From Vicinamibacteria bacterium (GTDB taxonomy: Bacteria; Acidobacteriota; Vicinamibacteria; Vicinamibacterales; JAENWD01): 64,000 nucleotides of DNA. A program made the translations under genes and the position numbers. The notes under the pieces were generated by a model. That model made no database searches. It was not told where the DNA came from and worked only from the letters and a program-made list of their open reading frames with translations. The first letter of the stretch is position 1; every line of letters starts with the position of its first letter. Location of the stretch: positions 832,176 to 896,175 of the forward strand of contig CAVOPA010000003.1 in NCBI GenBank assembly GCA_963697705.1, in the 5' to 3' direction. Positions 7,254 to 60,819 of this stretch are shown in pieces.

Positions 7254-7400
7254 CCGGAATGCACGATGCACAATGCACAATGACAGACGCGGGCACCGTC
7301 CTCGACATGAACACCGCGTGTGGCCGTGTCGAGCATGGTCGTTAGCTTCAGTCGCATCCAGTCTGCCGGCCGTTGTGCATTGTGCCTTGTGCATTACTCG
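7254..7400. repeat. Word palindrome, ATGCACA-type, between convergent genes
   Basis: Left ccggaatgcacgatgcacaatgcacaatgacag (7254-7286). Right ccggccgttgtgcattgtgccttgtgcattactcg (7366-7400). Loop contains a nested hairpin ctcgaca (7301-7307) / tgtcgag (7327-7333). Confidence 0.8.
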
Positions 7401-9767: not shown

Positions 9768-9900
9768 AAAGGCCAAAGGCTAAGGGCCAAAGGCTTAGGG
9801 CCAACCGCTGAAGGCCCAAGCGCGAGTCGGCTCGTGACCGCGAGCTCGCCAAGGGGCCTTTAGCCATTGGCCCTTAGCCATCAGTCCTTAGCCCTGAACC
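9768..9900. repeat. Word palindrome, GGCTAAGGGCCAA-type, filling the thiolase-hbd spacer
   Basis: Left aaaggccaaaggctaagggccaaaggcttagggcc. Right ggcctttagccattggcccttagccatcagtccttagccc. The right arm contains the thiolase stop codon and the left arm abuts the hbd GTG. Confidence 0.8.
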
Positions 9901-11264: not shown

Positions 11265-12287
11265 TCACCCACCGCAATCGTCCCCCTGCGTACCGCCGAT
11301 ATCAGGCGTGCCGATGCCGTCGTTGACCACGTGGCGGACGGCCCGGTCGATCGCAGCCGCTTCGTCAGTCAGACCGAGATGCGCGAGCATCAGGCCGGCG
11401 GACAGGATCGCACCCATCGGGTTCGCCACGTTCCGGCCCGCCAGCGGCGGCGCCGAACCGTGCACCGGCTCGAACATCGAGGTGCGGCCAGGGTGCACGT
11501 TCGCCGACGCGGCCATTCCGAGGCCTCCCTGTAGGGCGGCGCCAAGGTCGGTGATGATGTCGCCGAACAGGTTATTGGTCACGATGACGTCGAACTGCGC
11601 CGGCTCGCGCACCATCTGCAGCACCAGGGCGTCGATGTACTGGTGTGACGCATGGATGTCCGGAAATTCCGGTGCCACGGCGCGGAAGATGCGCTGCCAC
11701 AGGGCATGCCCGTCGGCCATGGCGTTGCTCTTGTCGGTCATGCACACGCGCGTGCGGCCGTGCACGCGTGCCCATTCGAACGCATACCGCACGATGCGGT
11801 TGACGCCCTTCCACGTATTGACCTCTTCCTGGATTGCGATCTCGTCCTCGGTGCCAGGCTTCACGCGACCGCCGACGCCAACATACACACCCTCGGTGTT
11901 CTCACGGAAGATCGCCATGTCGATGTCGGCCGGTGTGCGGTCCTTCAGCGGACAGAGCCGCGCGTCGAAGAGCGTGACGGGCCGGTAGTTCACGTACAAA
12001 TCGAGCTCGAAACGAATCCCGAGCAGGATGTCGCGCGCGTGCCGGCTGTCGGGCACCCGCGGATCGCCGAGCGCCCCGACGAGCACCGCGTCGAAGTCGT
12101 CCCTGAGCATCACGTACCCATTCGCGGGCACGGTGACGCCGGTCTCGAGGTAGTAGTCGGCGCCCCAAGGGATTTGTTCGATCTCGAACGTGCGCCCGAA
12201 GACATCGCCGACACGCCGGATCGCGCGGAGGGCTTCGGCTACGACCTCTTTGCCTATGCCGTCGCCGGGGATGACCGCCAGCCGCAT
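11265..12287 (-). CDS. Isocitrate/isopropylmalate dehydrogenase family enzyme (3-IPM or tartrate dehydrogenase-like)
   Basis: MRLAVIPGDGIGKEV, YVNYRPV, FRENTEGVY, NLFGDIITDLGAALQGGLG, EPVHGSAP. The C-terminus looks frameshifted (see findings); a corrected frame would end near 11234. Confidence 0.85.
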   Translation of the reverse strand: MRLAVIPGDGIGKEVVAEALRAIRRVGDVFGRTFEIEQIPWGADYYLETGVTVPANGYVMLRDDFDAVLVGALGDPRVPDSRHARDILLGIRFELDLYVNYRPVTLFDARLCPLKDRTPADIDMAIFRENTEGVYVGVGGRVKPGTEDEIAIQEEVNTWKGVNRIVRYAFEWARVHGRTRVCMTDKSNAMADGHALWQRIFRAVAPEFPDIHASHQYIDALVLQMVREPAQFDVIVTNNLFGDIITDLGAALQGGLGMAASANVHPGRTSMFEPVHGSAPPLAGRNVANPMGAILSAGLMLAHLGLTDEAAAIDRAVRHVVNDGIGTPDIGGTQGDDCGG

Positions 12288-12326
12288 GTCATGCAGGATG
12301 TCGGATGACGGATGCCGAATGCAAGG
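12285..12326. repeat. Low-coordinate arm of the GGATGNCG-word palindrome enclosing the four-helix-bundle ORF
   Basis: catgtcatgcaggatgtcggatgacggatgccgaatgcaagg. Includes the IPMDH start codon (12285-12287). Confidence 0.8.
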
Positions 12327-12415
12327 CTCGTCGATTCTGTCCGCCGGCGCCGAGCACAGAAGCATGTCGGATGGCGGGGGCCGGCCCCCGCGCCTAGATA
12401 TTCGACGATCCCGAT

Positions 12416-12788
12416 TCAGCCGCGACCTGGGTTGGAGCGCGCGTTGCGCAGAATCACAGTTAGTACCTGACACCAAGCCGTTAGCCTCGCGCAGCAATGG
12501 CGTAGCTGCCTCGACGAGCGCCGGCCGCTTGTTGCTGATCACGCGGAGCCAAAAATACGACTCGCGCGCCTCCTTCAAAGCGATAGCGCCCTTTGCGATG
12601 AAATCTGCCTTGCTCTGTCCAGCAGAGGCCTCCTCGAGGTTCGAGCCTATGCTCGTAGCGGCCTTGAACAATTGCCAGATCAAATGCCGGGTGGTGGCTC
12701 GCAGGTCCCGAACGGAATCGCAGAAATCGATCACGTCGCAGGCGAAGTTGAACGCACGATCATGAATATCTCGCGGCTTCTGCGTCAC
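12416..12788 (-). CDS. Four-helix-bundle protein (23S rRNA intervening-sequence protein family, TIGR02436/PF05635-like), apparent frameshift near the 3' end
   Basis: FNFACDVIDFC...QLFKAATSIGSNLEEASAGQSKADFIAKGAIALKEARESYFWLRVI. After ...LLREANGLV the family-typical tail (QVLTVILRNARSNPGRG-stop at about 12416) is in the neighbouring frame. As sequenced, the ORF reads through into the IPMDH gene, giving the 507-aa track ORF. Confidence 0.75.
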
Positions 12789-12860: not shown

Positions 12861-13012
12861 ATGCGCCATCCGCCATCCGCATCCGCCATCCTGCATCCGC
12901 CATCCTGGCATCCGGCATCCGTCGCATTCGGCATCCGGCATTCGACATCCGGCATTCGACATTCATCGACATCCGACATCCGACATCCGGCATCCGGCAT
13001 CAGGCATCCGAG
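12861..13012. repeat. High-coordinate arm (CATCCG/CATTCG words, ~150 nt) of the same palindrome
   Basis: ...gcattcggcatccggcattcgacatccggcattcgacattcatcgacatccgacatccgacatccggcatccggcatcaggcatccgag. Ends 3 nt from the thiolase stop at 13015. Confidence 0.8.
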
Positions 13013-14311: not shown

Positions 14312-15748
14312 CTACGGTCCCGCACGCCGATACACCCGCATCCGCTCACCGTCGCCCGGCCGGTCCGAGAACCGCACCAGGCGCTCACCGAATGGGCGCA
14401 GCGGCAGGTGCGGATTGTCGCCGAGCCATTCGTTCGTCAGGAGGACTCCCTCAGGCGCAAGCATCGCCGCGATGTTTGCCGTGGCAAGCGCCTGCTCGAA
14501 GATGTCGTAGTAGATCAGCACGTTGGTGGCGACCACCACGTCGAAGCGCTCGCCCGGCGGGAGATCCAGGCGCTGGTAGACGATGTCGAGGTCGAGCGCA
14601 GTCAAGAGACGAGGGACGTCGGCGGAGAGCCGGACGGCTCGGCGTTCGAGCGTGCCGGCGTTGTTGGGGGGCGCCAGGGGATGAGCCGCGGCGCCGACCC
14701 GTGTGCCCACAGCCTGCCACCAGGCGCGCGCCTCCGGCGTCCACGGCACGGCCGGATCGAGCGTGAGCTGCAGGTCGTACGGTCTGGCTTTCGGAGAATC
14801 GACGAGCCGACGCAGGTGCTGATTGACGCGAGGGCTGACGTCGAAGGTCGTGAGGCGAAGGTCTCGTGAGGCGACGCCGAGGGTCGCGAGCGAATCGATC
14901 ACGGCGAACGGCTGGAAGGTCTGCGGCGGGTAGTAATCCTGTCCCTCGGCCTTGTCGATGAAGTCGAGGCCAGGACCAATCACCGCGATGCGCCGCACGC
15001 CGCTCGCAGGCAGGATACTCCTGGCTTGCAGATCCGCGAGGGCGCCGTGGACTGCAAATGCGATCGGCCACGATGTGTCGGACGCCAGCGCGCGCGACGC
15101 AAAGAGGTGCGCCCGCCGCGCGATGTCCGCGCGTTCCCCGCCCGACTCCCCTGCCGCGAGCGCGGCGCCGAGTTCCCGGCTCTCGCGCGTGACCCGCGCG
15201 AAGTTTGCGAGCAGGTAGGCGCGCGCGCGAGTCGCGCCGGCCGGCGTTTCCACGGGCAGGCCGAGGCGATCGAACGTCGCGCGCACCCACGCCAGCCGTT
15301 CGTCACCCGCCGGAGTTCCGGCCGCAGTGACCAGGTCGGAGACGCGCGCGTGGATCGCGCCGCCAACCACGCGCTCGACTCCCGCCGTTCCCGTTCCGTC
15401 GGCCGCCGCGCGCGCAGTCGCATCGGCAATGAACGCGACCGTGATCCGTGGCGCCGTGGTGAAGCTCGTGCCGTAGACGAGCAGATACGCGAGCGCGTCT
15501 TCTTCGGCGCGGAGGACGCGGCCGCGAACGGCGGCGTCGCGCGCCCTCACCCAAGCGGTCCACCGCGCCGCGCCCTCCGTGTCGGACGGCAGGTCTGCTG
15601 GCGCGTGCTCGGCCACCGCGGGGAGCACGGAGGCGATCTCGCCGCGGAACACGAAGCGGACGCGAGATCCGTCGGCGGCGGCGAGCCCGAGCGCGAGAGC
15701 GCCGAGGGGGAGCCACACGAGAAACGGGGTGCGGCGGAACGGAGGCAC
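14312..15748 (-). CDS. Hypothetical exported/membrane-anchored protein with a methyltransferase-like C-terminal region
   Basis: GTG start before FLVWLPLGALALGLAAA. C-terminal RIAVIGPGLDFID...FDVVVATNVLIYYDIFEQALATANIAAMLAPEGVLLTNE resembles a class I MTase fold. The track start at 15868 lies in REP-like repeats. Confidence 0.55.
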   Translation of the reverse strand: MPPFRRTPFLVWLPLGALALGLAAADGSRVRFVFRGEIASVLPAVAEHAPADLPSDTEGAARWTAWVRARDAAVRGRVLRAEEDALAYLLVYGTSFTTAPRITVAFIADATARAAADGTGTAGVERVVGGAIHARVSDLVTAAGTPAGDERLAWVRATFDRLGLPVETPAGATRARAYLLANFARVTRESRELGAALAAGESGGERADIARRAHLFASRALASDTSWPIAFAVHGALADLQARSILPASGVRRIAVIGPGLDFIDKAEGQDYYPPQTFQPFAVIDSLATLGVASRDLRLTTFDVSPRVNQHLRRLVDSPKARPYDLQLTLDPAVPWTPEARAWWQAVGTRVGAAAHPLAPPNNAGTLERRAVRLSADVPRLLTALDLDIVYQRLDLPPGERFDVVVATNVLIYYDIFEQALATANIAAMLAPEGVLLTNEWLGDNPHLPLRPFGERLVRFSDRPGDGERMRVYRRAGP

Positions 15749-15814
15749 GCGCCGAGTGTAGCAGCGGGAGTACGCGACGGCGGGCCACCGGAAGGGGGCA
15801 CTAACTTGGGCACT

Positions 15815-15881
15815 GGCCTGCCTAAAGGCAGGCACTACACGGGATCCACCTGCGCGAAAGGCGGGCACTACACGGGACTAC
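15815..15881 (+). repeat. Two REP-like hairpin units (GCACTAC family)
   Basis: ggcctgcctaaaggcaggcactacacgggatcca and cctgcgcgaaaggcgggcactacacgggactac. Confidence 0.75.
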
Positions 15882-15954: not shown

Positions 15955-18900
15955 CTAGAACTCGAACTTCAGACCGAGCTGCACTCGGCGCATGTCGGGC
16001 GCGAAAGGCGTACGAATGCCCTTGTAGCCGTAGATTGCATCGAAGCTGCTGATGTCGGCATTACCGCTGTCCACGAACATGTTCGGCATGGTTCAGCAGG
16101 TTGTATGCCTCGAAGCGGAACTGAACGGCATAATGGTCGTTGAACCGGATACGCTTGCTGAGCGTCGCGTCGACGTTCCACCATCCCGGACCGCGAAACG
16201 CGTCGCGCTTCGTCATGTCGGATGGATACGGGCCGTAGTCGCTCGTCCCCTGCACCGGGTGCACATACCCGCCGGCGAACGGAACAACCGGTGTGAGGTC
16301 GAGGAGCTTGAACTGGTTCGGGTCTCCCGTGGCCGCCCCGCCCGTCGCGCTCCGGCTGATGCCGACGGGATCCTCCATGCGCATGCAGAGCACGAGGCCG
16401 TTCGTGCAGTCGAAGATCGAGAACGAATAGCCCGTCCTCGCGTTGAACAGGAACGCCATCTGCCAGTCGCCGAACAAGGCCCGCTTGACCCCGTAACCAT
16501 CGTTGAAGAACGGCAGCTGCCAGATCCCGCTGAACGCGACGCGGTGCCGCACGTCGAACTCGGCGTATCCGTAGTCGAGCATCGGGTCGAATGCGTCGAG
16601 GTAACCCAGGTTGAAGTTGTTGCCCGCGATGTTGTCGCTGAACGTGCTGCTCAGGTTGTCCTTCGCCTTCCCGTAACGTGTACGAGCCGTTGAACTGCAG
16701 GCCCGTGTTCGCCACGCGACGGCTTTCGAGCGAGAACTGCACGCCGTGGTACTGCGAACGGCCGCGGTTGCCGCGCGTGTTGAACGCCGTGTACTGCGTA
16801 TTCGGACGCGCGGTTGCGCCGCCAGCTCCCAGGTAGACGAGCGCGGCACCGGGCTTGTTCGGGTCGGCCAGATCGTACAGCTTCCGCCCGAGCGACCCGG
16901 AGTACTCGACCTTCGCGACGAGGTTCGCAGCCACCTCGTGCTGGTACGACAGGCCGTAGAAGTGCGAGTAGGCCGTCTCGATGTTCTGGTCCACGTGCCT
17001 GACGCTGCCGCGCGGGATGGTCTTCGTCACACCGGCCACACCGCCGAACGGACCGGCCGAGTCTACGAAGATCGGCATCGTCGGAACGTCCGTCGGGGCG
17101 TCGATGGAGGCGACCAGATACTGGGGCGGGTTGAACAGCACGTTGTAGGTGACGTTGCCGAAGTTGCGCTCGTACGACATGCCGTACCCGCCGCGGACGC
17201 TCGTCTTGCCGTCCCCGCGGACGTCCCACGCAAAGCCGACGCGTGGCGCCCAGTTGTTCTTGTCGGGCTTCCACAATTTACCGATCGGGCTCTCGTTACT
17301 CGGGAGCACATGTCCGTGCGCGAGGTTCTGGACCAACTCCGCCGGGCTGCTCGTGTTCACCGACGCGTTCGGGTCGCCGTAATAGAAGTTCGAATCGTAC
17401 TTCGGGTCGCTCTTCGTCTGCGGTCCGTAGTACTCGTAGCGCATACCCAGGTTGATGGTCAGGCGGTTCCCGAGCGCCAGTTGTCGTTTGCGTACAGCGC
17501 GAACTCGTTGTAGCGGTTGTTGCTGAAGAAGCTCGGGAGCGGGACCGGGGTCGTGTAAGTCCCACCTGGGAAGCCGCCAGGATTGATCGCCGTCTGGAAG
17601 CGCGCGAGCCGGCCCAGAACGAAGTTGTCCAGGGACGGCAGCTGCAGCCGCAGTCAGGTTCAGCGCCTCGACGGAGTTCGCGTAGGCGCCGAACGTCCGC
17701 TCGTCCTTGATGTGCACGTAGGAGCCGCCGAACCGGAAATCGTGCTTGCCCTTGATCCAGGTCTGGTCCTGATACAGCTGGAACAGCTGCTGCGGGCCTC
17801 CAAACGGAATGGCGCTTCCCGGGCTCCAGGGCAGGTAGCCGGGGAATGCGATGCGGTACCTCTGTAGGCGCACCGGCGTCGTCGGGTTCATGTAGAGCGT
17901 CGGCTGCGGGTCACCGTTCAAGCGGCTGATCTTCCATCAGACGATTCCAGACCACCTTGCTCTGCGCGGTGAACGTGGGCGAGAAGACATGCGTGAACGA
18001 GCCGAGGAGGTTGTGGTTCTTGTTCAGATACCCCGTTTCGAACCCGTCGTACGGACTGGAGGCGTTCGTGCCTGGCTCTGCTTCCTGGTTCTGGTACGCA
18101 TACCGCACGTACAGCTGCGTGTTCGGGCCCATGCTGTAGTCGACTCGATTCACCCACTGATAGTTGTCCTGCGGGTCGCCGCCGCCGGCGTCGATCGGCA
18201 GGCTCTTCTCGACGCGTCCGAACACCGGGAGGTCCGCAGGCAGACTGTTGAAAGCTCCGGCATCGGCGCCCACGATCCCCGTCACGTCGGCGCGGGTCAG
18301 CGTCGGACCGTTGATGTTGGCTCCCCCGTACGCGTTGAAGAACGCCTGGGTCTCGGGTGCGGAAGCCGAGAGGAACTGAGGCGTCGGTACCCAGGAGATC
18401 TCCGTGTCCGCGCTGCGCACGCGGATGTACTCGAGGCTCGAGAAGAAGTGCAGCTTGTCTTTCACCACCGGGCCGCCGATGCTGAAGCCGGTCTGATCGC
18501 GGCGGTACTTCCCCTTGTCGATGTCGTTCGACGTGTTGTCGTAGGAGTTGGCCGTCAGCTTCTCGTTTCGGAAGAACTCGTAGGCCGTGCCGCGGAACGT
18601 GTTCGTGCCCGACTTGGTGGCTACGTTGACGATGCCGCCGGTGGCGCGGCCGTACTGCGCCGAGAAGTTGTTGGTGATGACGCTGAACTCCTGAACGGAG
18701 TCGAGCGGCACGTCCTGGCCGACGGTCGCGTCGAACTCGTTGTTGTTGGCCGAACCGTCGAGCAGGATGTTCGTGCTGGCCGAACGGGCGCCGTTGATCG
18801 AGTATCCGGTGCCGCGGTCCGACGCGAGGTCGCGCGACACGTTGCCCGAGACGCCGACCAGGTCGTAGACGTTTCGCGTGAGGGTCGGCAGCTCGCGGAT

Positions 18901-19343
18901 CTGCGACTCCGATATCGTCGTGGCCTGCTCCGCGTTCACCACGTTGACGGTCGGCGTCTCAGACACGACCTGGATCGTCTCCGACGTGCCTGCCAGGCCC
19001 GAGCTTCGGGTTGAACTCCATGGCGCCGCCCACCGGCACGATGACCTTGCCCGGAGTTCTTCGCAAAACCGGCGAGCTCGGCAGAAATTTCATACGTGCC
19101 GGGCTGCAGGTTCGTGAAAACGAAACGGCCGTTCGAGTCGGTCACGGCCGAGCGCGAGACCCCCGTGCCGACGTTGGTCGCGGTGATCGTCGCACCGGGC
19201 AAGACACCGCCCTGTTCGTCCATGGCCGTGCCGCTGATGCGGCCGGTCTCGGTCTGCCCGAGTGCCAGCGCCGGCACGAGCAGCACCACGGCCAGCAGCA
19301 TCCAGAATGCGCGGCACAACGTCCACGGCCTTCTCGATCTCAT
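15955..19343 (-). pseudogene. CarboxypepD_reg / TonB-dependent receptor-like outer-membrane protein, about 7 frameshifts
   Basis: N-terminus with signal and GRISGTAMDEQGGVLPGATITA...SNGRFVFTNLQPGTYEISAELAGFAK. Plug-like INGARSASTNILLDGSANNNEF. Terminal strand ...RRVQLGLKFEF-stop at 15955. The continuous protein can only be read by switching frame near 19045, 18995, 17920, 17650, 17475, 16680 and 16085. Confidence 0.8.
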
Positions 19344-19836: not shown

Positions 19837-22770
19837 ATGAAATCTCGAATTCTAGCCTTCGTCGCGGCCCTGATGGTCGCGAACGCTGGCTACGGATGGG
19901 CCCAGGAAACCACAGGGTCCATCGCCGGCCGTGTGTCCGACCCGCAAGGGCTGGCGGTGCCCGGCGCCACGGTGACAGTCACCGGCGCGCGGGGAGCGCA
20001 GACCTTCACCGCGGACGCGGAGGGACGTTTCAACGCTCCGTTCCTTACGCCTGGCACCTACACGGTTCGGGCAGAGCTGCAGGGCTTCAAGGCGACCGAG
20101 CAGAAGGACGTGGTCGTGCGCCTCGGGCAGCGCGTCGATCTGCCGATCACCATGGCAGTGGGTGGCCTCACCGAAACGGTTGAAGTCACCGGAGGATCGC
20201 CGACGATAGACACCTCGACGACGACCGTCGGAGCGGTGATCAACTCTGACCTGTTGCAGCGCGTGCCGATCGGCCGGCGCTTCAGCGACGCACTCTACAT
20301 CGCGCCTGGCGTGACTGACAGCGGCGCGGGCGCAGCCAACCCGTCCGTCGCCGGAGGCAGCGGCCTCGAGAACCAGTACGTCGTCGACGGCGTGAACATC
20401 ACGAACACCGGCTACGGTGCGCTTGGCTCGTACTCCATCTACCACGGGTCGCTCGGCAATGGCGTCACCTACGACTTCGTGAACGAGATCCAGGTCAAGA
20501 CCGCGGGCTACGAGGCCGAGTACGGGCAGTCCACGGGCGGTGTCGTGAACGTGCTCACCAAGAGCGGCAGCAACAGCCTGCGCGGCAGCGTGTTCGGCTA
20601 CGCGCGGCCCTCGGCGCTCGAAGGCGAGTTCAAGCAGATCCAGACGGAGAACGGCTCCATCAACACGTCCGGCACGCAGACGAGCGACGCCGGGTTCACG
20701 GTCGGCGGCCCGGTGCTGCGCGACAGGATCTTCTTCTTCGGCGCGTACAACCCATCGTGGGAGACGCGCACGATCACCGCGCCGGCCGGCTTCCCGCTCG
20801 AGAGCCTCGGTGAGGTCGATCGCAAGCGGCACATCAACTCGTACTCCGCCAAGGGGAGCGCGCAGCTCGGGAACGGTCACCGCGTCGACGCGTCGTTTTT
20901 CGGTGACCCGGCAAAGGGCGACATGGGACCACAGCGGCTGTCGTCGCTCGTCCGCACCGATACATCGGCGTTCAGCTCACTCGAGTACGGCGGTCACAAC
21001 CAGACGCTGAAGTACGACGGTGTCATCCGTCCGAGCTGGCTCGTCGAAGCGACGTGTCTCGCGCGCGAAGAACAACCTGCAGGAGTTTCCGTCGGTCAAC
21101 TCGTTCCAGATTCAGGACACCACCGTGGTGCCCAACATCGTGAGCGGCGGCATCGGGTTCTACGAGGCGGGCAACGAGGGCATCAACCTGCAGTACCAGG
21201 CCAAGTCCACACACATCTTCGGCGGACACCAGATCCGGTACGGGGTGCTCTACGAGGACATCGAGTACAACAACATCAACCAGTACACGGGCCCGACCTT
21301 CACGCTGTCGGACGGGCAGCAGACGGCGACCGGAGCGAGCGTCCGCGTGCTGAGCGACCCCAATGTCGGGAAGATCTACCGCGCGATTCGGGCAAACCTG
21401 AACACGGACCGCTCGACGACGCAGCAGTACACCAGCTTCTTCGCGCAGGACACGTGGCGGGTGGGCAACCGGCTCACGATTCGACCGGGCATCCGCTACG
21501 AGCAGCAGAAGCTGGTCGGAACGCTTGACGGACTTCAAGTGGAGCGGCAACTGGGCGCCACGCATCGGCGCCACCTATGACGTGCTCGGGAACGGCCGCT
21601 CGAAGCTGTATGCGAACTGGGGCCGCTTCTTCGCCAAGGTGCCGAACGATCTCGCGGCCCGTGCGCTGTCGGCCGACGCGGGCGTGACGCGCGCGGACTA
21701 CTACGACGCCGCGCTGACGCAGCCGATTCCCGAGGGTGTGCCCGCCGGGCCCAACCTCGAGACGCGACACCTGAACTTCGCCGGGCTCTCGCCGTCGGAT
21801 TTCGATCCGGACGCCAAGTCCACCTACCTGGACGAGACGCTGGTCGGGTTCGAGTTCGAGCCGTTCACGAACCTGAACGTCGGCGCGCGGTGGGTCCACC
21901 GCCGGTTCGGGCGGATTCTCGAGGACGTGGGCACCGTGCCGATGGTCGGGTTCTTCCTCCCGGACAGCGGGGCGGACAGCGTCGAGTACTTCATCACCAA
22001 CCCAGGACCGAAGACGCCTGTCGTTCCGATTCCCGGCTTCGACATCAGCTTCGAAAACGCGATCCACGACTACGACGCCGTAGAACTGACAGCAGACAAG
22101 CGGTTCGGCAACAACTGGGGCCTGCAGGCGTCCTACCGCTGGTCGCGGCTGTATGGCACGTTCGAGGGCTTCTTCAGGAACGACAACGGCCAGTCGGACC
22201 CGGCGATCACCTCGCTGTTCGACTTCCCGACCAACGACCCGAGCTACGCCGCGATCGGCGTGCCGGAGTTCGGCTTCCGCGGCGATATCCGGTATCTGGG
22301 GTCGGCCGGCGCCGGTCCGCTCCCGACCGATCGGCCGCACCAGGTCAAGGTGTACGGCAACTACTCGATGAACTGGGGCCTCAACCTGGGCGCGGGCGTG
22401 ACAGCTCGGTTCCGGGATACCGCTCACGGCCCTCGCCGCGAACCCGTACTACGAGAACGAGGGCGAGATTCCGGAAGGGCCTCGCGGCTCGGGCGTCCAG
22501 ACGGCGGACGGGTTCAAGACGCGGACGCCGTTCACCTACGACGTCAACCTGCACACCGACTATGCGGTCAAGATGGGCGGGACGCGGAGGGTCGTGCTCC
22601 TGGCCGACATGTTCAACCTGTTCAACGTGAGGCGCGCGACGGGCTACGATCAGGACACGGAGTCCTCGTTCGGTGCGCTGAACCCCGATTACGGGCAGCC
22701 GGTGATCGCCCGGGTGCCGCAGTTCCAGACGCCGTTCCAGCTGCGGTTGGGCGCGCGGTTCGAGTTCTAG
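19837..22770 (+). pseudogene. CarboxypepD_reg / TonB-dependent receptor-like outer-membrane protein, about 3 frameshifts
   Basis: RBS GGGGAG then MKSRILAFVAALMVANAGYGWAQETTGSIAGRVSDPQGLAVPGATVTV...; ends ...FQLRLGARFEF-stop. Frame switches are needed near 21052, 21522 and 22400. Confidence 0.8.
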
Positions 22771-22780
22771 CAGACAACAC

Positions 22781-22816
22781 GAAGAGGGCGAGCGGGAAGA
22801 CCCGCCCGCCCTCTTC
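22781..22816 (+). terminator. Stem-loop downstream of the second receptor gene
   Basis: GAAGAGGGCGAGCGGG-aaga-CCCGCCCGCCCTCTTC (15/16 paired), 11 nt after the stop at 22770. No strong U-tract. Confidence 0.6.
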
Positions 22817-22908
22817 GATTCGCAACCGGGGTCCCCGGGCGCCGTTTGGGTCCGGGTGCCTGAACAGGCCCGCCCCACTCGCTCGGGCCCCACGGACCTC
22901 CGGCCCCG

Positions 22909-22980
22909 ACCTCCCGCCTCCAGCCTCCAGCCTCCAGCCCTCCAAGCCCCTCAGCCCTCAGCCTTGGTTGGCCTTAGCCG
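22909..22980. repeat. One-armed simple-word tract (CCTCCAG / CCCTCAG words)
   Basis: cctcccgcctccagcctccagcctccagccctccaagcccctcagccctcagccttggttggccttagccg. No complementary arm seen nearby. Confidence 0.7.
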
Positions 22981-23253
22981 ATAGTCTGCTTACCACCCGT
23001 CTCACATCACGACGTAGCAGGGTCCAGTGGACATACCTCTGTGACGAGCTGCATTCAACTTCTTGGATGGCGATCCAGCCGATCCGCAAATTGTCACGGA
23101 TCCGCACTGTTCACCACGGGGATATCGCCTTTCGTCACATCAAGTTAGAGTTTCGTCCCCGATTGGCACGGAGCTTCCTTATTGCTGCGTATCCAGGTGC
23201 CCACCCGTTTTTGCCTGGGCTCGTTTATTTGAACCCCTAGAGGAGGATGGAAG

Positions 23254-26398: not shown

Positions 26399-26410
26399 CA
26401 CGTACCGGAA

Positions 26411-26515
26411 GGGCTAAAGGCTAAGGGCCAAGGGCTTAGGGACGGCCGGGGTTAAGGCCCAGAACTCGACTAGCCCTCAGCGGTGCCCTTAGCCCTCAGC
26501 CTTTAGCCCTCAGCC
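26411..26515. repeat. Word palindrome, GGCTAAGGGCC-type, between convergent genes
   Basis: Left gggctaaaggctaagggccaagggcttaggg (26411-26441). Right cccttagccctcagcctttagccctcagcc (26486-26515), ending 1 nt from the M14 stop codon. Confidence 0.8.
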
Positions 26516-26516
26516 T

Positions 26517-29336
26517 TCAGTAGAGCGCGTTGAAGAGCAGCTTGAAGGTAGCGTGGGGCTGGGCGCGGAACTGGGGCGGGAAGGCGAAGAGGACGACACG
26601 GCCGGCGCCATATGGTGCGTCGAGCAGCGCGTGGCGGGTGGCGATGCGATCGGCGCCGAGCAGCCAGCCGCTCATGAGCACGACGTCGGCGGGCGCGTAC
26701 TGCGCAATGCTCTGCACCGTCGGATCGGCAGTGTCGAAGGCGCGCGAGGCCTCGAAATAGGCGGCGCTCTCACGCGCCATCCCCCAGGCCACCGGCTGGT
26801 TGATGTCGACGGTGATCCGCACCACAGACCCCGGGCAGTAGAACACCGAGCGATCCAACCCGCGCGTCACGTCGCGAATGCGATCGAACACGCCGCCGAA
26901 GCGTTCGAGCGGGAGGTCGCTGGCCGCATCGAGGGTCACGAGTGTGCCGCCATCGTGCACGAAGCGCTTCAGCGCCTCCACCCCGGACTCGCCGATCCCG
27001 CCCTGGTACTCCGGTGGCACGGGGTTGGAGGGCCCATCGTGCCGGGATGACGCGGAGGGCTCGTGGCCGCGAACGATCGCCGCCGGTGACTGGCGCGGCA
27101 GGATGATGACGTCGAACGACCTGCGGAGATCGCCGGCGCGGACATCGCGGTCGACCAGCGTCGCGTATGGGAATCCGTACTGCTCCAGCAGCCACCGCGT
27201 CCAGCCTTCGTCGATATTGGCGACCCAGCTCTTATACAGGCCGATGCGGCGTGCGGCGATGGGCTGCGTGGGGTCCGCAGGCGCGCGATCGATTGACCAC
27301 GCGCGGAGACCGAGATCCTCCACCAGGCGGCGGACCAGCGCTGCGAGCCCCGGTCCGCGGTTTCGCGCCCCGGCGGGCTGCGATCGGCTGAATGCCATGT
27401 CGCTATCGCCGGACGCCCGGCTCGACTCGGGCGCGACAAGAGCCTTTCCTCCGCGGCCGGCCACCTTGATGACCCACGCTCCCGCTGGCAAGGTGACGCC
27501 CGGGCGGGGACTGAAGGGAGCGCGGAGGCGGCTGACGGCTGCGCCGTGCGCCAGCAGCCGGTTGACGGCGAGTGCGCTCACGTTCGCACGGTCATCAATC
27601 ACATACCCCCACGGGCCGGAGCCGGGTGCGATGGTGATGGCGCCCGCCGCGCGCGGTGCCGTCTCGAGGCGCACGAGGGCCGTCGTGTCGAATGGCGTGG
27701 CGACAGGAACGGCGGTGACGCCCATCTGATACGCGAGCGTCCAGCCGGCCGTGTCGTAGGGCGGGATTGGCGGTCCACCCGGGTGCGCGCGCAGATCCGG
27801 GTACACCTGGCGCTCGAGCAGGTCCTTGGCAAAAGGCCGGAACGGCTGCGCGAGCAGCACGGCGTGCGTACCGGCGGGATACGTGACCCCGTCCGCGGCG
27901 AGCGGCGCCGTCGCACGATGCACCTCGATTCCGCCCTTCATCAGCGTGTCGATGAACGCCATGCTCGCCGGCACGTCGTGCTGCGGGGCAGGAATGATGT
28001 AGGCCACAGGCGCTTCGGTCCGGCCCTTGGCGATCTGCCGCGCGCCGACCTGGTAGATGCCGTAGAGGAGCTGCTCGCGCCACTTCGCCGCAAGGTCGAG
28101 GACGCCCAACGAGCCCGTGAGCATGTAATCGACGGCGTCGGCGAGGTGCAGCGTGCCGCCCTTCCAGGGATTCGGATACGTCACGCTCGGCACGAGCGTG
28201 GACACGCCGTTCGAGAGCGTCCGCGGGAAATCGGCGGGGTCGTACGTGTACGGCGTGGCCGAGGCGTGGCCGGTCTCCGTCAGGATGCCGATGATGTTGT
28301 GGAAATAGCTCGTCGTGCGGACCGAACCGTTGTACCAGATCGAGAACGAGTATCGCGAGATGACGCCGTCCTTTCCCTCGCGCTCGAACCGGTCCTGCAT
28401 CGCGCCGCCGACCAGATCCACGCCGCGCACGATCTGCGGATCGATGTTGGGGTTCACCGGGTCGGGAAACGGCGGCACGAAGATGCGCGGCGGGTACGTG
28501 CCCTGATGCTGGTTGTACATGATTTGCGGCAGCCACTCCGCGAACAGCAGGTGACTGACGACCTGCGTTTCCTTCTGCGTCTGCATGTAGCCGTCGCGGT
28601 TGTTGTCGTGCCCGACATACTTCTGATAGAGCCACGGCATCGGACTGTCCTGGTGCGGCGTGTGGAGCGTGCGCCGGTACCAGTCGACCACCATGTTCAT
28701 GCCGTCCGGGTTGATGCACGGCGCGAGAACGAGGATCACGTTGTCGCGGATCGCCTGCATCTCGGCGCTGTCGTCGGTGGCCACACGGTAGGCGAGCCGG
28801 ATCGCGTGCTGCGCGGTCGCGACCTCGCTCGCGTGGAGGCCGCTGTCGATCCAGACGACTGCCTTGCCCTCCCGCGCGAGCGCGCGCGCCTCGCGGTCGC
28901 TCAAGCCGCCGACGAGCGCGAGCCGCCGCGAGATGTCACGGTAGTGCCCAAGCCGGGCGAGGTTCGCTTCCGACGAGATGATCGCGACGAGCATCTCGTT
29001 GCCTTCAGTGGATTGTCCCGCGATCTCGAGCTGCACCCGGTCGGAGGCCGCATCGAGCCGCTGGAAATACGCGCGCAGCTGCCGGAAGTCCGCGAGCGTG
29101 TAGTCGTCGCCGGGCTCGAACCCGAGGACGTCGCGCGGCGAAGGCACCCCGGTGGGCGCCTGCGGCGCGGCGCGCAGCTGTCCGGCAGGCTGCGGGAGCA
29201 GCAGGAGCGCGCACACTCCGAGGAGCTGCAGGAGATGTCCTGCGCACGTCCGGGTCGGCACGGGAGCTAGAGTGCCCGACGCTGCGAGGCTGCGCAACCC
29301 GACGCTGTCCCGTCGGCCAATGGCAGCTTTATCCAT
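26517..29336 (-). CDS. M14-family zinc carboxypeptidase-like protein, long form with C-terminal GATase1-like module
   Basis: GLHASEVATAQHAIRLAY, CINPDGMNMVVDWY, KYVGHDNNRDGYM. C-terminal IGLYKSWVANIDEGWTRWLLEQYGFPY...FDVIILP. Confidence 0.85.
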   Translation of the reverse strand: MDKAAIGRRDSVGLRSLAASGTLAPVPTRTCAGHLLQLLGVCALLLLPQPAGQLRAAPQAPTGVPSPRDVLGFEPGDDYTLADFRQLRAYFQRLDAASDRVQLEIAGQSTEGNEMLVAIISSEANLARLGHYRDISRRLALVGGLSDREARALAREGKAVVWIDSGLHASEVATAQHAIRLAYRVATDDSAEMQAIRDNVILVLAPCINPDGMNMVVDWYRRTLHTPHQDSPMPWLYQKYVGHDNNRDGYMQTQKETQVVSHLLFAEWLPQIMYNQHQGTYPPRIFVPPFPDPVNPNIDPQIVRGVDLVGGAMQDRFEREGKDGVISRYSFSIWYNGSVRTTSYFHNIIGILTETGHASATPYTYDPADFPRTLSNGVSTLVPSVTYPNPWKGGTLHLADAVDYMLTGSLGVLDLAAKWREQLLYGIYQVGARQIAKGRTEAPVAYIIPAPQHDVPASMAFIDTLMKGGIEVHRATAPLAADGVTYPAGTHAVLLAQPFRPFAKDLLERQVYPDLRAHPGGPPIPPYDTAGWTLAYQMGVTAVPVATPFDTTALVRLETAPRAAGAITIAPGSGPWGYVIDDRANVSALAVNRLLAHGAAVSRLRAPFSPRPGVTLPAGAWVIKVAGRGGKALVAPESSRASGDSDMAFSRSQPAGARNRGPGLAALVRRLVEDLGLRAWSIDRAPADPTQPIAARRIGLYKSWVANIDEGWTRWLLEQYGFPYATLVDRDVRAGDLRRSFDVIILPRQSPAAIVRGHEPSASSRHDGPSNPVPPEYQGGIGESGVEALKRFVHDGGTLVTLDAASDLPLERFGGVFDRIRDVTRGLDRSVFYCPGSVVRITVDINQPVAWGMARESAAYFEASRAFDTADPTVQSIAQYAPADVVLMSGWLLGADRIATRHALLDAPYGAGRVVLFAFPPQFRAQPHATFKLLFNALY

Positions 29337-39996: not shown

Positions 39997-40075
39997 TGCA
40001 AAATGCACGATGCACGATGCGACGATGCGACGATGCGACGATGGACAGACTGACATGTCGGATGCGGGATGCCGG
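39995..40075 (+). repeat. Direct octamer/heptamer word tract between convergent genes
   Basis: aatgcaaaatgcacgatgcacgatgcgacgatgcgacgatgcgacgatggacagactgacatgtcggatgcgggatgccgg. Confidence 0.75.
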
Positions 40076-42221: not shown

Positions 42222-42375
42222 GGTAAAGGGCCAAGGGCTGGGGCCAGGGGCCAGCGCTTGCGCGCCATGACGATCGCTCCCGCGTTGGCCACGGCCCTCC
42301 TGCGTCTTCGCGTGTCCGCAGCAGCAGCAGCTCGACTGAAGTCTTTAGTCTTGGCCCTCTAGCCCGCAGCCCCTT
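42222..42375. repeat. Weak GGGCCAAGGGC-word palindrome in the tsaD-yjbQ spacer
   Basis: Left gtaaagggccaagggctggggccaggggcc. Right gtctttagtcttggccctctagcccgcagcccctt. Complementary words are present but the register is not collinear. Confidence 0.45.
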
Positions 42376-43508
42376 CAAAGCGCCAGGCTCGCCTCAGCGT
42401 TGAGATCCCAGCCCGCGCGGACGCCGGCGTGGTAGGCACGCAGGCCGGCGGCGGCGATCATCGCCGCGTTGTCGGTCGAGAGCGCCAGGCTCGGGATGAA
42501 CACGGGCAGCCCTTCGCGCGCGCCGCGTGCCAGGGCGTCGGCGCGCAGCCGGCTGTTCGCCGACACGCCGCCGGCGATGCCCACGCTAGCGGCACCGAAA
42601 CCGCGCGCCGCCGCGAACGTGCGATCGAGCAGCGTCTCGACGACGGTTCGCTGGAAACTGGCGCAGAGGTCCGCAACCTGTGCAGGGGTCAGGATTTCGC
42701 CATCAGGGTTGTTGCCCGCCTGAAGGCGGGCACTACCGGGATCACGGCCTCTGCGCTGACCATGCGTCGTCTTGCTCGCGACTCCACCTGGGTCGCGGAC
42801 CACGCGCAGCACCGCGGTCTTGAGGCCGCTGAAGCTGAAATCGAGACGGCCGGGATCATCTGGTGTGCGCCGATCCGCATGGGTGATGCGCATCTGCGGA
42901 AATTCGAAGGCGCGGTCGTTGCCATCGCGGGCGGCCCGATCGATCGCCGGCCCGCCCGGATACCCCAGACCGAGAAGCTTCGCGACCTTGTCGTAGGCTT
43001 CCCCCGCCGCATCATCTCGCGTGCGGCCCAGCGTGCGATAGTCGCCCGGCGCGGTCACTGCGTAGAGGCTCGTGTGCCCACCCGACACAACCAGCACCAC
43101 GGCTGGCAATGGCAGTGGGCCGTTCTGGAGGAAGAGCGACTCGATGTGGCCCGCCAGGTGGTGCACCGGCACCAGCGGCAGCCCGCGGGATGCGGCGAGC
43201 GCCTTCGCGAACGACACGCCGACGAGCAGTGATCCGACCAGCCCCGGCCCGGCGGTGACCGCAATCGCGCCGATGTCGTCCAGCGTCGAGCCCGCCTGCG
43301 CGAGGGCGCTCTCGACCACGCCGCAGATGTCTCGCACGTGCTGTCTCGACGCGATTTCCGGCACGACACCGCCCCACTCGCGGTGGATGTCCGCCTGGGA
43401 CGCGACCACGTTGGACCGCACCATCCAGGGACGTGCAGGGTCGTCCACCTCCTCGACGACCGCCGCCGCCGTCTCATCGCAGGAGGTCTCGATGCCGAGC
43501 ATCCGCAT
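42375..43508 (-). CDS. tsaD: tRNA N6-adenosine threonylcarbamoyltransferase
   Basis: [45 protein letters not shown]. Carries an extra segment containing a REP-like element (see findings). Confidence 0.93.
42712..42749 (+). repeat. REP-like hairpin unit (GCACTAC family) inside the tsaD coding sequence
   Basis: ttGCCCGCCTGAAGGCGGGCACTACcgggatcacggcc. The 23-nt core is identical to the array units at 48466-48570. Confidence 0.85.
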
Positions 43509-43526
43509 GCGAAGGATCGCGCCCGA

Positions 43527-44588
43527 TTAGCTCTGAGCCACCGGGTCAACCGCACAGGCCACGCGCAGGCTCTCCGTGTACGGCGCCCGGAAGATGCCGC
43601 GTTCGGTGATGATCCCCGCGATGAGCCGATGTGGCGTGACGTCGAAGGCCGGATTGCGAATGAGCGCGCCGACGGGCGTGAGCCGCAGGTTTCTGAGGTG
43701 GGTCACCTCCCGCTGGTCGCGCTCCTCGATCGGGATATGCGTGCCGTCGGGCGTAGCCAGGTCGATTGTCGAGACCGGGGCCGCGATGTAGAACGGAATC
43801 TGGTGCTCGTGTGCGAGCACGGCGACGGTGTAGGTGCCGATTTTGTTCGCCGTGTCACCGTTCGCCGCGATGCGATCCGCCCCCACGACGACGACGTCGA
43901 TCTCGCCATCGCGCATCAGCGGTCCCGCCATGCTGTCGGTGATGACCGTCGTCTCGATGCCGTCGCGCAGCAGTTCCCACGCGGTGAGGCGCGCCCCCTG
44001 CAGAAAGGGGCGCGTCTCGTCGGCGAGCACGCACACCCGCTTGCCCTGCTCCACGGCCGCCCGCACGACGCCGAGCGCGCTGCCGTACCCTGCCGTCGCC
44101 AGGGCCCCGGCGTTGCAGTGCGTGAGCACGCGGGCCACGTCCGGAATCACTGCCGCGCCGAACCCGCCGAGCATCCGGCAGCTCGCGACGTCCTCGTCGT
44201 GGATCAGGCGTGCTTCCGTGCGCAGCCGCTCCTGCAGCTGTTCCACCGACTCGCCAGCCTCGACGCCCGCGGCGAAGCTGCGCTTCATGCGATCGATGGC
44301 CCAGAACAGATTGACCGCCGTCGGTCGCGTGGCGGCCATCACGTCGCACATCCGGTAGAACTCGACGGCAAGCTTCTGCGTGCCCGTGGCCTTGCTCTGG
44401 CGCACGCAGAGGGCCAAACCCATCGCCGCGGCCACACCAATCGCCGGCGCGCCGCGAATCACCATCGTCTTGATCGCCTTGGCGACCTCCTGAGCCGTGC
44501 GGCAGCGCACGTAGAGCTCTTCGGCGGGCAGCTTGCGCTGATCCACCATCACGATGGCATCGTCGGTCCACTCGATGGTCGGAAGCAT
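43527..44588 (-). CDS. mtnA: S-methyl-5-thioribose-1-phosphate isomerase
   Basis: [55 protein letters not shown]. Confidence 0.92.
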
Positions 44589-47006: not shown

Positions 47007-48326
47007 TCAGAGCAGCATTGACGCGATCGCGGCGTTGATCAGGGTGGCAAGAAAGCCCACGAGCAACGCCCGAGAGGCGAGCCGGGCCAGGTCGCCTCGG
47101 CGCGTGGGGGCCATTCCGCCGATGCCGCCGAGCTGGATGCCAATCGAAGCGAAGTTCGCGAAGCCGGTGAGCGCATATGTGGCGAGCGTGTACGACCGCG
47201 GGCTCAGCGTGTGGCGGTACTGCGTCGTCAGCTTCACGAACGAGACGAACTCCGTGGCCACGAGCTTCGTGCCGAGAAGATCGGCGACGGCCGGCACATC
47301 AGCACGCGGCACGCCCATGAGCACGGCGGCAGGTGAGAAGACCACCGCGAAAACGCTCGCGAGCGTCAGGCCCGGGCGAATTGCACCGAGCACGAAGTCA
47401 AACAGCGCCAGGAACGCCAGGAAGGCGATGAGCATGGCGGCGACGTTCAGCGCCAGGGTCAGTCCGTCCGCGGCGCCAGCGGCCGCAGCGTCGATGACGT
47501 TGACGTGCTGGCGCTCGACGGCCGTTTTTACGCGCCCCTGAGTCTCGGGGCGTTCGAGCTCGGGCAGCATTATCTTCGAGAGGTACAACCCACACGGTGC
47601 CGCCATGACGCTCGTCGTCAGAATGGCAATCGGGTCTGCGCCGAGCCCGATGTAGACGGCCATGACCCCGCCGGAGATAGTGGCCATCCCGCCAACCATC
47701 ATCGCGAGCAGCTCCGACTGCGTCATCCGGGGCACGTACGGTTTCACGATGATTGGCGCCTCGGTTTGGCCCATGAAGACGTTCGCCGCCGCCGACAATG
47801 TTTCTGCGCCGCTCGTTCGCATCAGGTACATCATGGCGCGCGCCATCATGGCGACGATGAACTGGAGGACACCAAAGTAGTACAAGACCGTGAAGAACGA
47901 CGATATGAAGATGATCGTCGGCAGCGCCGTAAACGCGAAGACGAACCCGCGCGGCAGCACCTTGCCGAGGACCTGCTGGTTCGCGAGATCACCAAACACG
48001 AACTGCGAGCCCAGGTTCGTGAACTCGAGAAAACGCGCGACACCTCGCGCCACCGCGCTGAACAGCTCATAGCCCGGGCGGACGCCGTTCACCTCGAGCT
48101 TCAGGATGAAGAACGCCAGCAGCAGCTGCAGCGCGATGCCCCAGCCAACCGTGCGCCAGCTCACGGCGCGCAGGTTGGAGGAGGCGGCGGCCACGATGGC
48201 GATGAAGCACAGCGCGCCGATGCCGCCCTGCAGGCGGGGATCGATCACCCCCTGCGAGAGCCAGGCGAGTGCGGCGAGTACAACGGCGACGCCGCCGGCG
48301 GCGATGCGTAACGAGAGATTCGACAT
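47007..48326 (-). CDS. Concentrative nucleoside transporter (NupC/CNT family)
   Basis: GFVFAFTALPTIIFISSFFTVLYYFGVLQ, GAETLSAAANVFMGQTEAP, TGFANFASIGIQLGGIG. Confidence 0.88.
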   Translation of the reverse strand: MSNLSLRIAAGGVAVVLAALAWLSQGVIDPRLQGGIGALCFIAIVAAASSNLRAVSWRTVGWGIALQLLLAFFILKLEVNGVRPGYELFSAVARGVARFLEFTNLGSQFVFGDLANQQVLGKVLPRGFVFAFTALPTIIFISSFFTVLYYFGVLQFIVAMMARAMMYLMRTSGAETLSAAANVFMGQTEAPIIVKPYVPRMTQSELLAMMVGGMATISGGVMAVYIGLGADPIAILTTSVMAAPCGLYLSKIMLPELERPETQGRVKTAVERQHVNVIDAAAAGAADGLTLALNVAAMLIAFLAFLALFDFVLGAIRPGLTLASVFAVVFSPAAVLMGVPRADVPAVADLLGTKLVATEFVSFVKLTTQYRHTLSPRSYTLATYALTGFANFASIGIQLGGIGGMAPTRRGDLARLASRALLVGFLATLINAAIASMLL

Positions 48327-48397
48327 GTGCGCTGAATCCTGGTCAGAGTCTCGTGGCGGCGACGTTTCGGCTGCGCTCGATGCGCTCGCGGGATCGC

Positions 48398-48632
48398 GGC
48401 CCGCCTGAAGGCGGGCACTACGTGACGATCACGGCCCACCTTGAGGCGGGCACTACGGACATCACGGCCCGCCTGAAGGCGGGCACTACGCGACGATCAC
48501 GGCCCGCCTGAAGGCGGGCACTACGCGACGATCACGGCCCGCCTGAAGGCGGGCACTACGCGACGATCACGGCCCGCCTGAGGCGGGCACTACGACGATC
48601 CGGCCCGCCTGGCGGGCACTACCTGACGATCC
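48398..48632 (+). repeat. Tandem array of 7 REP-like hairpin units (31-35 nt) between deoA and nupC
   Basis: Units start at 48398, 48433, 48466, 48501, 48536, 48571 and 48602. Consensus GGCCCGCCTGAAGGCGGGCACTACGCGACGATCAC. Three central units are identical. The last unit overlaps the deoA stop at 48619. Confidence 0.9.
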
Positions 48633-57045: not shown

Positions 57046-57128
57046 CATTCGCAATTCGGAATTCGGAATGCGGCGCTCGGAATTAGAGCCGACTTCGGAG
57101 CGCGGAGTGCGGAAAGCGAGGCACGGAG
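57046..57128 (+). repeat. CGGA-word tract beside csbD
   Basis: cattcgcaattcggaattcggaatgcggcgctcggaattagagccgacttcggagcgcggagtgcggaaagcgagg. Confidence 0.7.
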
Positions 57129-60730: not shown

Positions 60731-60819
60731 AAATGTCGGATGCAGGATGGCGGATGCCGGATGCCAGAAAGTCCTTGGCGTCACATTCGACATCCAGCAT
60801 CCGACATCCCGCATCCTCT
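60731..60819. repeat. Word palindrome, GGATGNCG-type, between convergent genes
   Basis: Left aaatgtcggatgcaggatggcggatgccggatgccag. Loop aaagtccttggcgtcac. Right attcgacatccagcatccgacatcccgcatcctct, abutting the rng stop at 60818. Confidence 0.8.

Follow-up and report, generated by a model that had tools for sequence, protein, structure and literature searches.

An in-frame GTAG-tagged hairpin repeat in a predicted disordered loop of TsaD from a Vicinamibacteria bacterium

How a dispersed hairpin repeat can come to lie inside a protein-coding gene without breaking its reading frame is the question raised by the tsaD gene in a 64,000-nt stretch of DNA from a Vicinamibacteria bacterium (Acidobacteriota; assembly GCA_963697705.1, contig CAVOPA010000003.1, positions 832,176 to 896,175), referred to here in its whole length as the window. 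TsaD is a universal tRNA-modification enzyme, essential in most bacteria. Its gene in the window (42375..43508, minus strand) encodes 377 amino acids in an intact reading frame, and one segment of it is made up of a hairpin unit that recurs elsewhere in the same DNA. The locus is very probably explained by a resident array of GTAG-tagged repetitive extragenic palindromes (REPs) that entered the codons of the loop between helices α7 and α8 of TsaD, survived there through an open frame and the tolerance of the loop for disorder, and is now a fast-evolving, length-polymorphic passenger.

The 23-nt core of the unit, GCCCGCCTGAAGGCGGGCACTAC, has an exact copy on the plus strand at 42714-42736, inside tsaD, and four more exact copies at 48399-48559, within a tandem array, in agreement with the original prediction, which had reported the tsaD core to be identical to the array units at 48.4-48.6 kb. 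Degenerate copies with at most three mismatches lie at 48434 and 15816, shorter variants are found at 48572 and 48603, and 100 dinucleotide-preserving shuffles yielded no match, so that none is expected by chance. The similarity between tsaD and the array extends beyond the core, which is followed on the plus strand by CGG and by GATCACGGCC, the 10 nt with which the next array unit begins. It ends at 42749, giving a full unit of 36 nt in tsaD (42714-42749), and the bounds first proposed for the element (42712-42749) were essentially right. Read on the sense strand of the gene, the unit has the form GTAG-T-GCCCGCC-TTCA-GGCGGGC, in which an unpaired GTAG tag (42733-42736) precedes a GC stem of 7-8 bp, with arms at 42725-42731 and 42714-42720, that encloses a 4-nt loop (42721-42724), all on the minus strand. 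The hairpin was recovered both by RNA folding and by a scan for GTAG hairpins, the stem of the tsaD copy reaching 8 bp, and the 141-nt insert region as a whole folds with a z-score of -3.98. The minus-strand translation given earlier for the repeat is correct, and the unit encodes residues G254-G265, between the two conserved blocks where it had been placed, FSFSGLKT (224-231) and ADLCASF (279-285). Within it, the core accounts for S259-G265 together with the final two bases of codon G258 (GSARLQAG is encoded by 42714-42737), and the adjoining spacer remnant (CGG plus GATCACGGCC on the plus strand; 42737..42749, minus strand), recognized by comparison with the array unit GATCACGGCCCGCC, accounts for G254-P257 together with the first base of codon G258 (GRDP plus the G of GGT). 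No Rfam family matched at gathering score anywhere in the window. Roles of the tsaD site as an intrinsic terminator or as a promoter were considered and rejected, with no terminator-like site in 42300-43600 and no promoter found.

The identity of the host gene is supported by the list of open reading frames (ORFs), profile matching, structure prediction, structural search and synteny. The TIGR03723 profile scores 384 bits on the 42375-43508 ORF, against a cutoff of 296, in two matched stretches that break at the insert, and this score above the equivalog cutoff is accompanied by an intact predicted fold. The residues invariant across 72 homologs are kept in the window TsaD, and the gene order mtnA-tsaD-yjbQ is conserved in relatives. 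An AlphaFold2 model built on the 72-sequence alignment (predicted local distance difference test score, pLDDT, 87.6; predicted template modeling score, pTM, 0.87) features a helix at residues 227-243, a coil at 244-274 with a pLDDT of about 45-55 and a second helix at 275-304, and Foldseek returns target-normalised TM-scores of 0.90-0.93 to the A. aeolicus, E. coli and Salmonella TsaDs (8ifx/8iey, 4ydu/4wq5/4wq4, 3zet and 6z81). According to the model, the insert falls in a loop that is predicted to be disordered and is flanked by two confidently modelled helices, with the rest of the fold intact. The window protein shares with the solved bacterial TsaDs of T. maritima, E. coli and A. aeolicus (PMC13276492) an equivalog-level match, an intact fold and the conservation of FSFSGLK and helix α7, but their α7-α8 connection takes up only about 5 residues, opposite some 38 unaligned residues of the query, whereas the window has a 31-residue coil (244-274). 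In the cryo-EM structure of the T. maritima TsaB2D-tRNA complex, helix α7 (Ala210-Glu223) begins in F207SFSGLK213 and runs along the D-stem of the tRNA (PMC13276492). Applying an offset of +17, Glu223 of T. maritima corresponds to P240 of the window, which places the beginning of the insert exactly where α7 ends on its C-terminal side, within the α7-α8 loop. This loop, which lies near the tRNA-binding surface, clearly tolerates added length, and its description as a harmless surface loop is plausible.

In the window, the linker running from T231 to D280 measures 48 aa. The original prediction had given approximately 40 aa for it, and the 10-20 aa put forward there as typical of the family proved about right. 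Measured between GLKT and D[LV]CASF in the 120 closest TsaD homologs (65-100% identity), the linker is 24 aa or shorter (18-24 aa) in 73, 25-35 aa long in 6 and 36-105 aa long in 41, making the expanded forms a total of 47 and supporting the earlier view that the long form is atypical. In a tree computed with the linker masked, the window and P0002 are sister to P0005/L004 (84% identity), the closest insert-free ortholog, which has a 21-aa linker and no repeat-like DNA. Alignment with this close relative delimits an insertion of about 78 nt net (26 codons) and, together with the preserved frame and the predicted disorder of the loop, supports the proposal that the repeat was inserted in frame into a loop. 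Metagenomic sequences contributed a further 80 tsaD loci, at 73% identity or less, of which the parsable ones have mostly short linkers, of 31-43 aa, about half having missed the motif expression.

Related long-read assemblies are rich in homopolymer indels, with 16 gap positions over 3 kb in L124 that break both tsaD and mtnA, and some genes of the window look fragmented, as in the case of several pieces of TonB-dependent receptors. Both observations are compatible with an assembly or sequencing artefact in which the repeat was collapsed or mis-joined into tsaD. The same insert, however, is found with an identical 3' junction (…GGCGGGC followed by AACAACCCTGAT) in L001 (GCA_047520405, 91% amino acid identity) and with the 3' junction of the window in L124 (98.3% nucleotide identity over 3 kb), and the insert peptide is present in the protein sequences of P0123 and P0124 (413 aa). 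These come from different samples, and both the tsaD frame and the flanking synteny of the window are preserved. Because the same junction recurs in at least three independent assemblies, an artefact is excluded for practical purposes.

The intact unit is flanked by what appears to be further repeat-derived sequence. Residues D239-R253 (42750..42794, minus strand), delimited by DNA alignment with P0005 and P0002, start with GTCGCG like the array units, contain a second small hairpin (CGCGAC...GTCGCG) and probably represent decayed units. On the other side, the 3' part of the insert (N266-G270, NNPDG; 42699..42713, minus strand), which is missing from P0005 in the DNA alignment, may derive from the spacer (CCTGAT vs. 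CCGTGAT), an assignment that is uncertain. The insert of P0002 has 90 nt more of decayed units (e.g., GCCGTGGTCGGCGTAGTGCCCG and …CGCGATCCCGGTAGTGCCCGCC), removal from the P0002 allele of the stretch that separates two of these direct repeats yields the window allele, and P0123 and P0124 show an additional 6-aa (18-nt) tandem duplication. Near-identical strains hence carry TsaD alleles of 377, 407 and 413 aa that differ in 90-nt and 18-nt blocks bounded by direct repeats, and the insert as a whole is best read as what is left of an array of several units. When the window is compared with P0002, the proportions of synonymous (pS) and non-synonymous (pN) differences are 0.175 and 0.063 in the linker and 0.032 and 0.005 in the rest of tsaD, all of them based on small numbers.

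The way in which such units can be translated imposes a simple logic on their presence in a gene. Four of the six frames of the unit are open, one being closed in each orientation, either by the TAG of GTAG or by a TGA in the loop. With a period of 35 nt, the frame shifts from one unit to the next, so that three or more intact tandem units cannot be read through, and the arrays seen in tsaD are, as this logic requires, exclusively short or length-altered. In P0125 (277 aa) and P0129 (272 aa) the REP is read in the other open frame (VVPAFRRA) and a stop follows. A genuinely frameshifted or split tsaD was considered for these two proteins and rejected, given that the 98.3% identical DNA of L124 (2501-3633, ERZ25039579 contig_86816), in which tsaD appears as truncated 272-277-aa products and a 69-aa fragment as a result of single-base homopolymer indels, has such indels throughout and a broken mtnA as well. 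The truncations probably stem from errors in the assembly of long reads, and such errors make pseudogenes look more numerous than they are in these metagenome-assembled genomes (MAGs). Homopolymer indels around a repeat-rich stretch leading to falsely truncated TsaD calls are of relevance to annotators and completeness tools.

The tsaD unit belongs to a family with other members in the window. The tandem array at 48392..48631 (minus strand, on which the GTAG tag is read) holds about seven head-to-tail units of the tsaD REP with a period of 33-35 nt, reported by Tandem Repeats Finder for the same interval as 7.1 copies of GATCACGGCCCGCCTGAAGGCGGGCACTACGCGAC with a period of 35, and it lies upstream of a nucleoside-transporter gene (47007-48326, minus strand; flanking genes assigned with Pfam), at a distance of 66 nt from the start codon. 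On its other side lies a long ORF containing an M14 peptidase, on the strand opposite to that of the transporter gene. A CRISPR reading of the array was rejected on account of its 10-12-nt, nearly identical spacers, those of CRISPRs being unique and about 25-40 nt long. Two diverged units (GCCTGCCTAAAGGCAGGCACTAC and the degenerate ...GGCGGGCACTAC) lie at 15816..15871 (minus strand), in DNA that is either intergenic or the over-extended 5' end of the ORF at 14312-15868, and the window contains in total three family sites and about ten units. A general enrichment of GTAG/GTGG hairpins in the window was ruled out, with 14 observed against 3-16 in Markov simulations; only this specific family is real.

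A scan for the core, covering one genome per species, identified at least 35 loci with an exact match. Among the matches listed, all but one are in Acidobacteriota MAGs, from the Vicinamibacterales, Candidatus Acidiferrales and unclassified members, with at least 12 loci in MAG STL-ACI17 alone, and the copies are mostly intergenic, many of them adjoining inverted relatives such as GTAGTGCCCGGCTTCAGCCGGGC and GTAGTGTCCACCTTTAGGTGGAC. The exact core at L033 (7821-7843, JASGHY010000001.1, labelled as a Chitinophagaceae MAG) is located in a 7.6-Mb contig labelled as Bacteroidota, next to a GTAGTGTCCGGC-type partner, and could reflect either a binning or labelling problem or horizontal transfer. 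Across 321 kb of DNA, comprising the window and related loci, 65 GTAGTG hairpins were found, and at least six stem variants (GCCCGCC, GCCCGGC, GTCCACC, GTCCGCC, GTCCGGC and GCCTGCC) share the GTAGTG tag and a TTCA or TTTA loop, each with its complementary 3' arm; the loci having been preselected for the GCCCGCC core, the relative frequencies of these variants are biased.

GTAG-tagged REPs have been defined as short stem-loops with stems of 5-13 bp and loops of 2-20 nt (Table 1 in PMC3733652). The family described here displays a short stem-loop (a 7-bp GCCCGCC/GGCGGGC stem and a TTCA loop), an unpaired GTAG, present as GTAG-T before the stem in every unit, dispersed and mainly intergenic copies, in the numbers given above, and subfamilies with compensatory stem changes. 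The tsaD element has the architecture of a GTAG-tagged REP in that definition, the likeness being one of architecture.

Several relatives of the window carry repeats in the very same loop of TsaD. In L003/P0011, the loop contains the exact 23-nt core in the orientation opposite to that of the gene (GPPEGGHY), and in L002/P0014 it contains about three units in the same opposite orientation, with the compensatory stem GTCCGCC/GGCGGAC. Three units of a different subfamily (GTAGGGCGGACC…, GGGCGGGCC… and …GCCCCGCTCTAC), found also in intergenic DNA of the same contig, occupy the loop in L005/P0076, short tandem repeats (GAGAGGCACGG-like) occupy it in L006/P0033, and L122/P0003 retains a unit that has decayed (about 24 of 31 nt) and shares its orientation and frame with that of the window. 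Because insert-free TsaDs are nested among insert-bearing ones in the linker-masked tree, these arrangements require at least three independent REP captures (sense, antisense and from another subfamily) and one tandem-repeat expansion, and the α7-α8 loop of TsaD is, on these comparisons, a recurrent hotspot of repeat colonisation in related bacteria. Some of the remaining pattern may go back to an older insertion with subsequent losses.

A second host gene shows a similar pattern. Homologs of the type III restriction enzyme (ResIII) connect YYPDFIARxG to LNLIxEVSGE through a loop with a basal form of 1-8 residues. In L019 (3137-6313, minus strand; JBFWPN010000003.1, a Vicinamibacterales MAG), the exact core lies in frame in this loop of the C-terminal nuclease-like region (…ARSARLQAGPAD…). 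The peptides found in P0138 (RSVRLQPD) and P0132 (RSVRLEP) resemble related units read in the frame of L019, and P0130, P0133, P0135, P0142, P0145 and P0150 harbor other inserts at the same position. Judging from these alignments, ResIII behaves like tsaD, and in-frame capture in loops appears to be general in the lineage. Other candidate intragenic copies were discarded: L009 is intergenic, between speA and rnhA, and its frame is spurious, and L014, L021 and L036 are probably located upstream of the true start codons. Inverted, REPIN-like REP doublets were also observed within long coding-like frames of the JACQTH01 groundwater Acidobacteria MAG, one of them in the C-terminal region of a putative TreZ-like protein without a Pfam hit (L010, 4635-5354, minus strand), and the other forming the C-terminal tail of a 4Fe-4S oxidoreductase (L008, 4320-7607, minus strand).

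In the sequence of events that we infer for tsaD, a GTAG-REP unit or short array resident in this Acidobacteriota (Vicinamibacterales-like) genome would have entered the codons of the α7-α8 loop, either through single-strand transposition of the HUH type, mediated by a REP-associated tyrosine transposase (RAYT), or through template switching or recombination with a REP array. The insert would have persisted by virtue of an orientation and frame devoid of stop codons, at a site that tolerates an extra disordered peptide. In-frame deletions and duplications between direct repeats would later have altered the length of the array, the insert would have decayed under relaxed constraint, and the same process would have struck repeatedly in this loop and in loops of other proteins of the lineage. 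The GTAG-tagged superfamily is also characterized by RAYT genes flanked by the REPs (REPtrons). Regarding this agent of transposition, Pfam revealed no RAYT/Y1 domain of the PF01797 type among approximately 50 ORFs of the window, which is a small part of any genome, and a tblastn search of the window and related loci with an E. coli YafM sequence, intended only as a lead, gave no hit at E<1.

The route of arrival may also have dispensed with a transposase altogether. Template switching, ectopic repair or gene conversion from a head-to-tail array, such as the one at 48.4 kb, followed by slippage, is a possibility that we entertain tentatively, and a recombination or template-switching route has real weight because the core in tsaD is accompanied by array-type spacer (GATCACGGCC), instead of being a lone REP, and because no RAYT was detected in the sampled DNA. 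The several decayed units of P0002 and the bounding of length variants by direct repeats also speak for such a route. On the other hand, no homology is evident between the DNA of the basal tsaD loop and the array that could seed recombination, the occurrence of both orientations and of different subfamilies at one site is equally well explained by transposition followed by a selection filter, and the search for a RAYT extended over no more than a small fraction of each genome.

Most likely, the REP-encoded peptide, once in place, is a passenger that is neutral or nearly so in function. The position of the insert, which starts at the equivalent of T. maritima Glu223, the last residue of α7, along the D-stem (PMC13276492), invites the alternative of an adaptive loop whose repeat-derived, partly basic peptide would modulate tRNA binding, TsaB/TsaE cycling or regulation from the vicinity of the D-stem-binding α7. 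The net charge of the window insert, of about +2 as counted from the sequence, the expansion of the linker in 47 of the 120 relatives and the retention of inserts by one whole subclade would be in line with such a role, which would account for the frequent expansion of the loop in this clade. The inserts of relatives, however, share no length, charge or motif, being acidic (SAGEQDGTAKTAEGAASGA), basic or composed of repeats, and when near-identical strains are compared, change has accumulated in the linker 5-12 times faster than elsewhere in the gene. Furthermore, its length is polymorphic inside a species-level cluster, insert-free forms are nested among insert-bearing ones, and the pLDDT of the region is below 55. 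An adaptive role is disfavoured by this heterogeneity and fast turnover of inserts, and we consider it improbable. Little credence is likewise given to the conjecture that the loop is a preferred target of REP insertion or recombination, owing to some structural or sequence property of the DNA of its basal codons, and that the resulting peptides, placed at the end of the D-stem-binding helix, tune tRNA binding or TsaBDE cycling; if it were true, REPs would repeatedly supply a universal tRNA-modification enzyme with evolvable loop sequence.

Some observations weigh against the capture of a resident REP array as a neutral passenger. The copy in P0003 shares the orientation and frame of the window, and part of the pattern could therefore reflect one old insertion followed by precise losses, and not repeated gains. 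To account for a perfect unit beside heavily decayed ones, either gene conversion or another event at a later time has to be assumed. The sampled DNA yielded no RAYT/Y1 transposase, leaving the transposition step without direct support, and the array of the window is head-to-tail, an arrangement that, like a 5' location, has been described as uncommon or rare among GTAG REPs (PMC3733652). Lastly, we infer the neutrality of the peptide for a loop that starts at the C-terminal end of α7, which in T. maritima contacts the D-stem (PMC13276492).

In-frame REPs and Rickettsia palindromic elements (RPEs) are already established (PMC3733652). A survey of GTAG- and CGTC-tagged REPs found a minority of them in frame in genes, often grouped and contributing 20-80 aa, documented different REPs at approximately the same gene site in related species, as in Xanthomonas recB, and suggested that in-frame inserts lie in flexible linkers or loops (Di Nocera, De Gregorio and Rocco, 2013, BMC Genomics 14:522; PMC3733652). 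The elements described here share with those intragenic REPs a GC-rich hairpin with an unpaired GTAG and a dispersed, mostly intergenic distribution that includes dimers and clusters, but differ in their Acidobacteriota host, in the head-to-tail array of the window and in the lack of a RAYT in the sampled DNA. The names tsaD, gcp and ygjD do not appear in the text of that survey or in five of its supplementary files. The RPEs of Rickettsia (Ogata et al., 2000, as cited in PMC3733652) are in-frame palindromes in genes that are probably functional, and are there usually interpreted as selfish DNA in surface regions; RPE-4 and RPE-6 carry a CGTC tag, and the palindrome of RPE-1 is longer (PMC3733652). 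The tsaD element resembles them as a palindromic repeat in frame in a gene that is probably still functional, but it is a GTAG-tagged, 35-nt unit, which sets it apart from RPEs, and its host belongs to a free-living soil lineage, in contrast to the obligate intracellular Rickettsia. With the REPIN/RAYT system (Bertels and Rainey, 2011; PMC3116915) it has in common GTAG-type hairpins, and inverted doublets do occur at L008, L010 and L031, but neither the tsaD copy, with one intact unit beside remnants in the same orientation, nor the head-to-tail array at 48.4 kb constitutes a REPIN.

What is new in the present case is the phylum, the host gene and the documented recurrence and polymorphism beside a tRNA-binding helix. 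The multi-unit nature of the remnant, the repeated hits across the clade, the adjacency to the D-stem-binding α7 and the existence of previously described in-frame REPs had all escaped the original prediction. The locus provides a clean, multiply replicated case of selfish hairpin repeats in the coding sequence of a universal enzyme, in a little-studied soil phylum. It also provides a natural polymorphic system, with insert-free alleles beside those of 377, 407 and 413 aa and with inserts in both orientations and from several REP subfamilies, that can be used to address questions on loop gain and REP movement. For annotation purposes, the splitting of TsaD hidden Markov model matches into two stretches by the insert is to be expected in Vicinamibacterales-like genomes.

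Other features of the window were noted in passing. The intergenic DNA is unusually rich in tandem arrays of 7-8-nt units, with CATCCGG, for instance, repeated about 20 times; the arrays occur at 4488-4527, 7258-7282, 9768-9820 with 9855-9893, 12867-13010, 26409-26441 with 26485-26520, 40003-40043, 42228-42254, 57047-57084 and 60733-60816. Some of them have inverted partners (AAAGGCC.../...GGCCCTT, AAGGGCT/GCCCTCA) and could pair as long imperfect hairpins, and similar short tandem repeats are present in the TsaD-loop codons of relatives (L006, and GGGGCYR in L005). Matches to the TonB-dependent receptor family OMP_b-brl_4 are split among 16061-16849 (minus strand), 17911-18966 (minus strand), 21020-21580 (plus strand) and 21525-23240 (plus strand), each covering only part of the profile, which suggests frameshifts, due either to real pseudogenes or to assembly indel errors in the window. 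Finally, a single frame at 11265-12788 (minus strand) joins an N-terminal 23S_rRNA_IVP four-helix bundle (aa 8-87) to an isocitrate/isopropylmalate dehydrogenase domain (aa 170-501), and could correspond to a fusion, to two adjacent in-frame genes or to an over-extended start.

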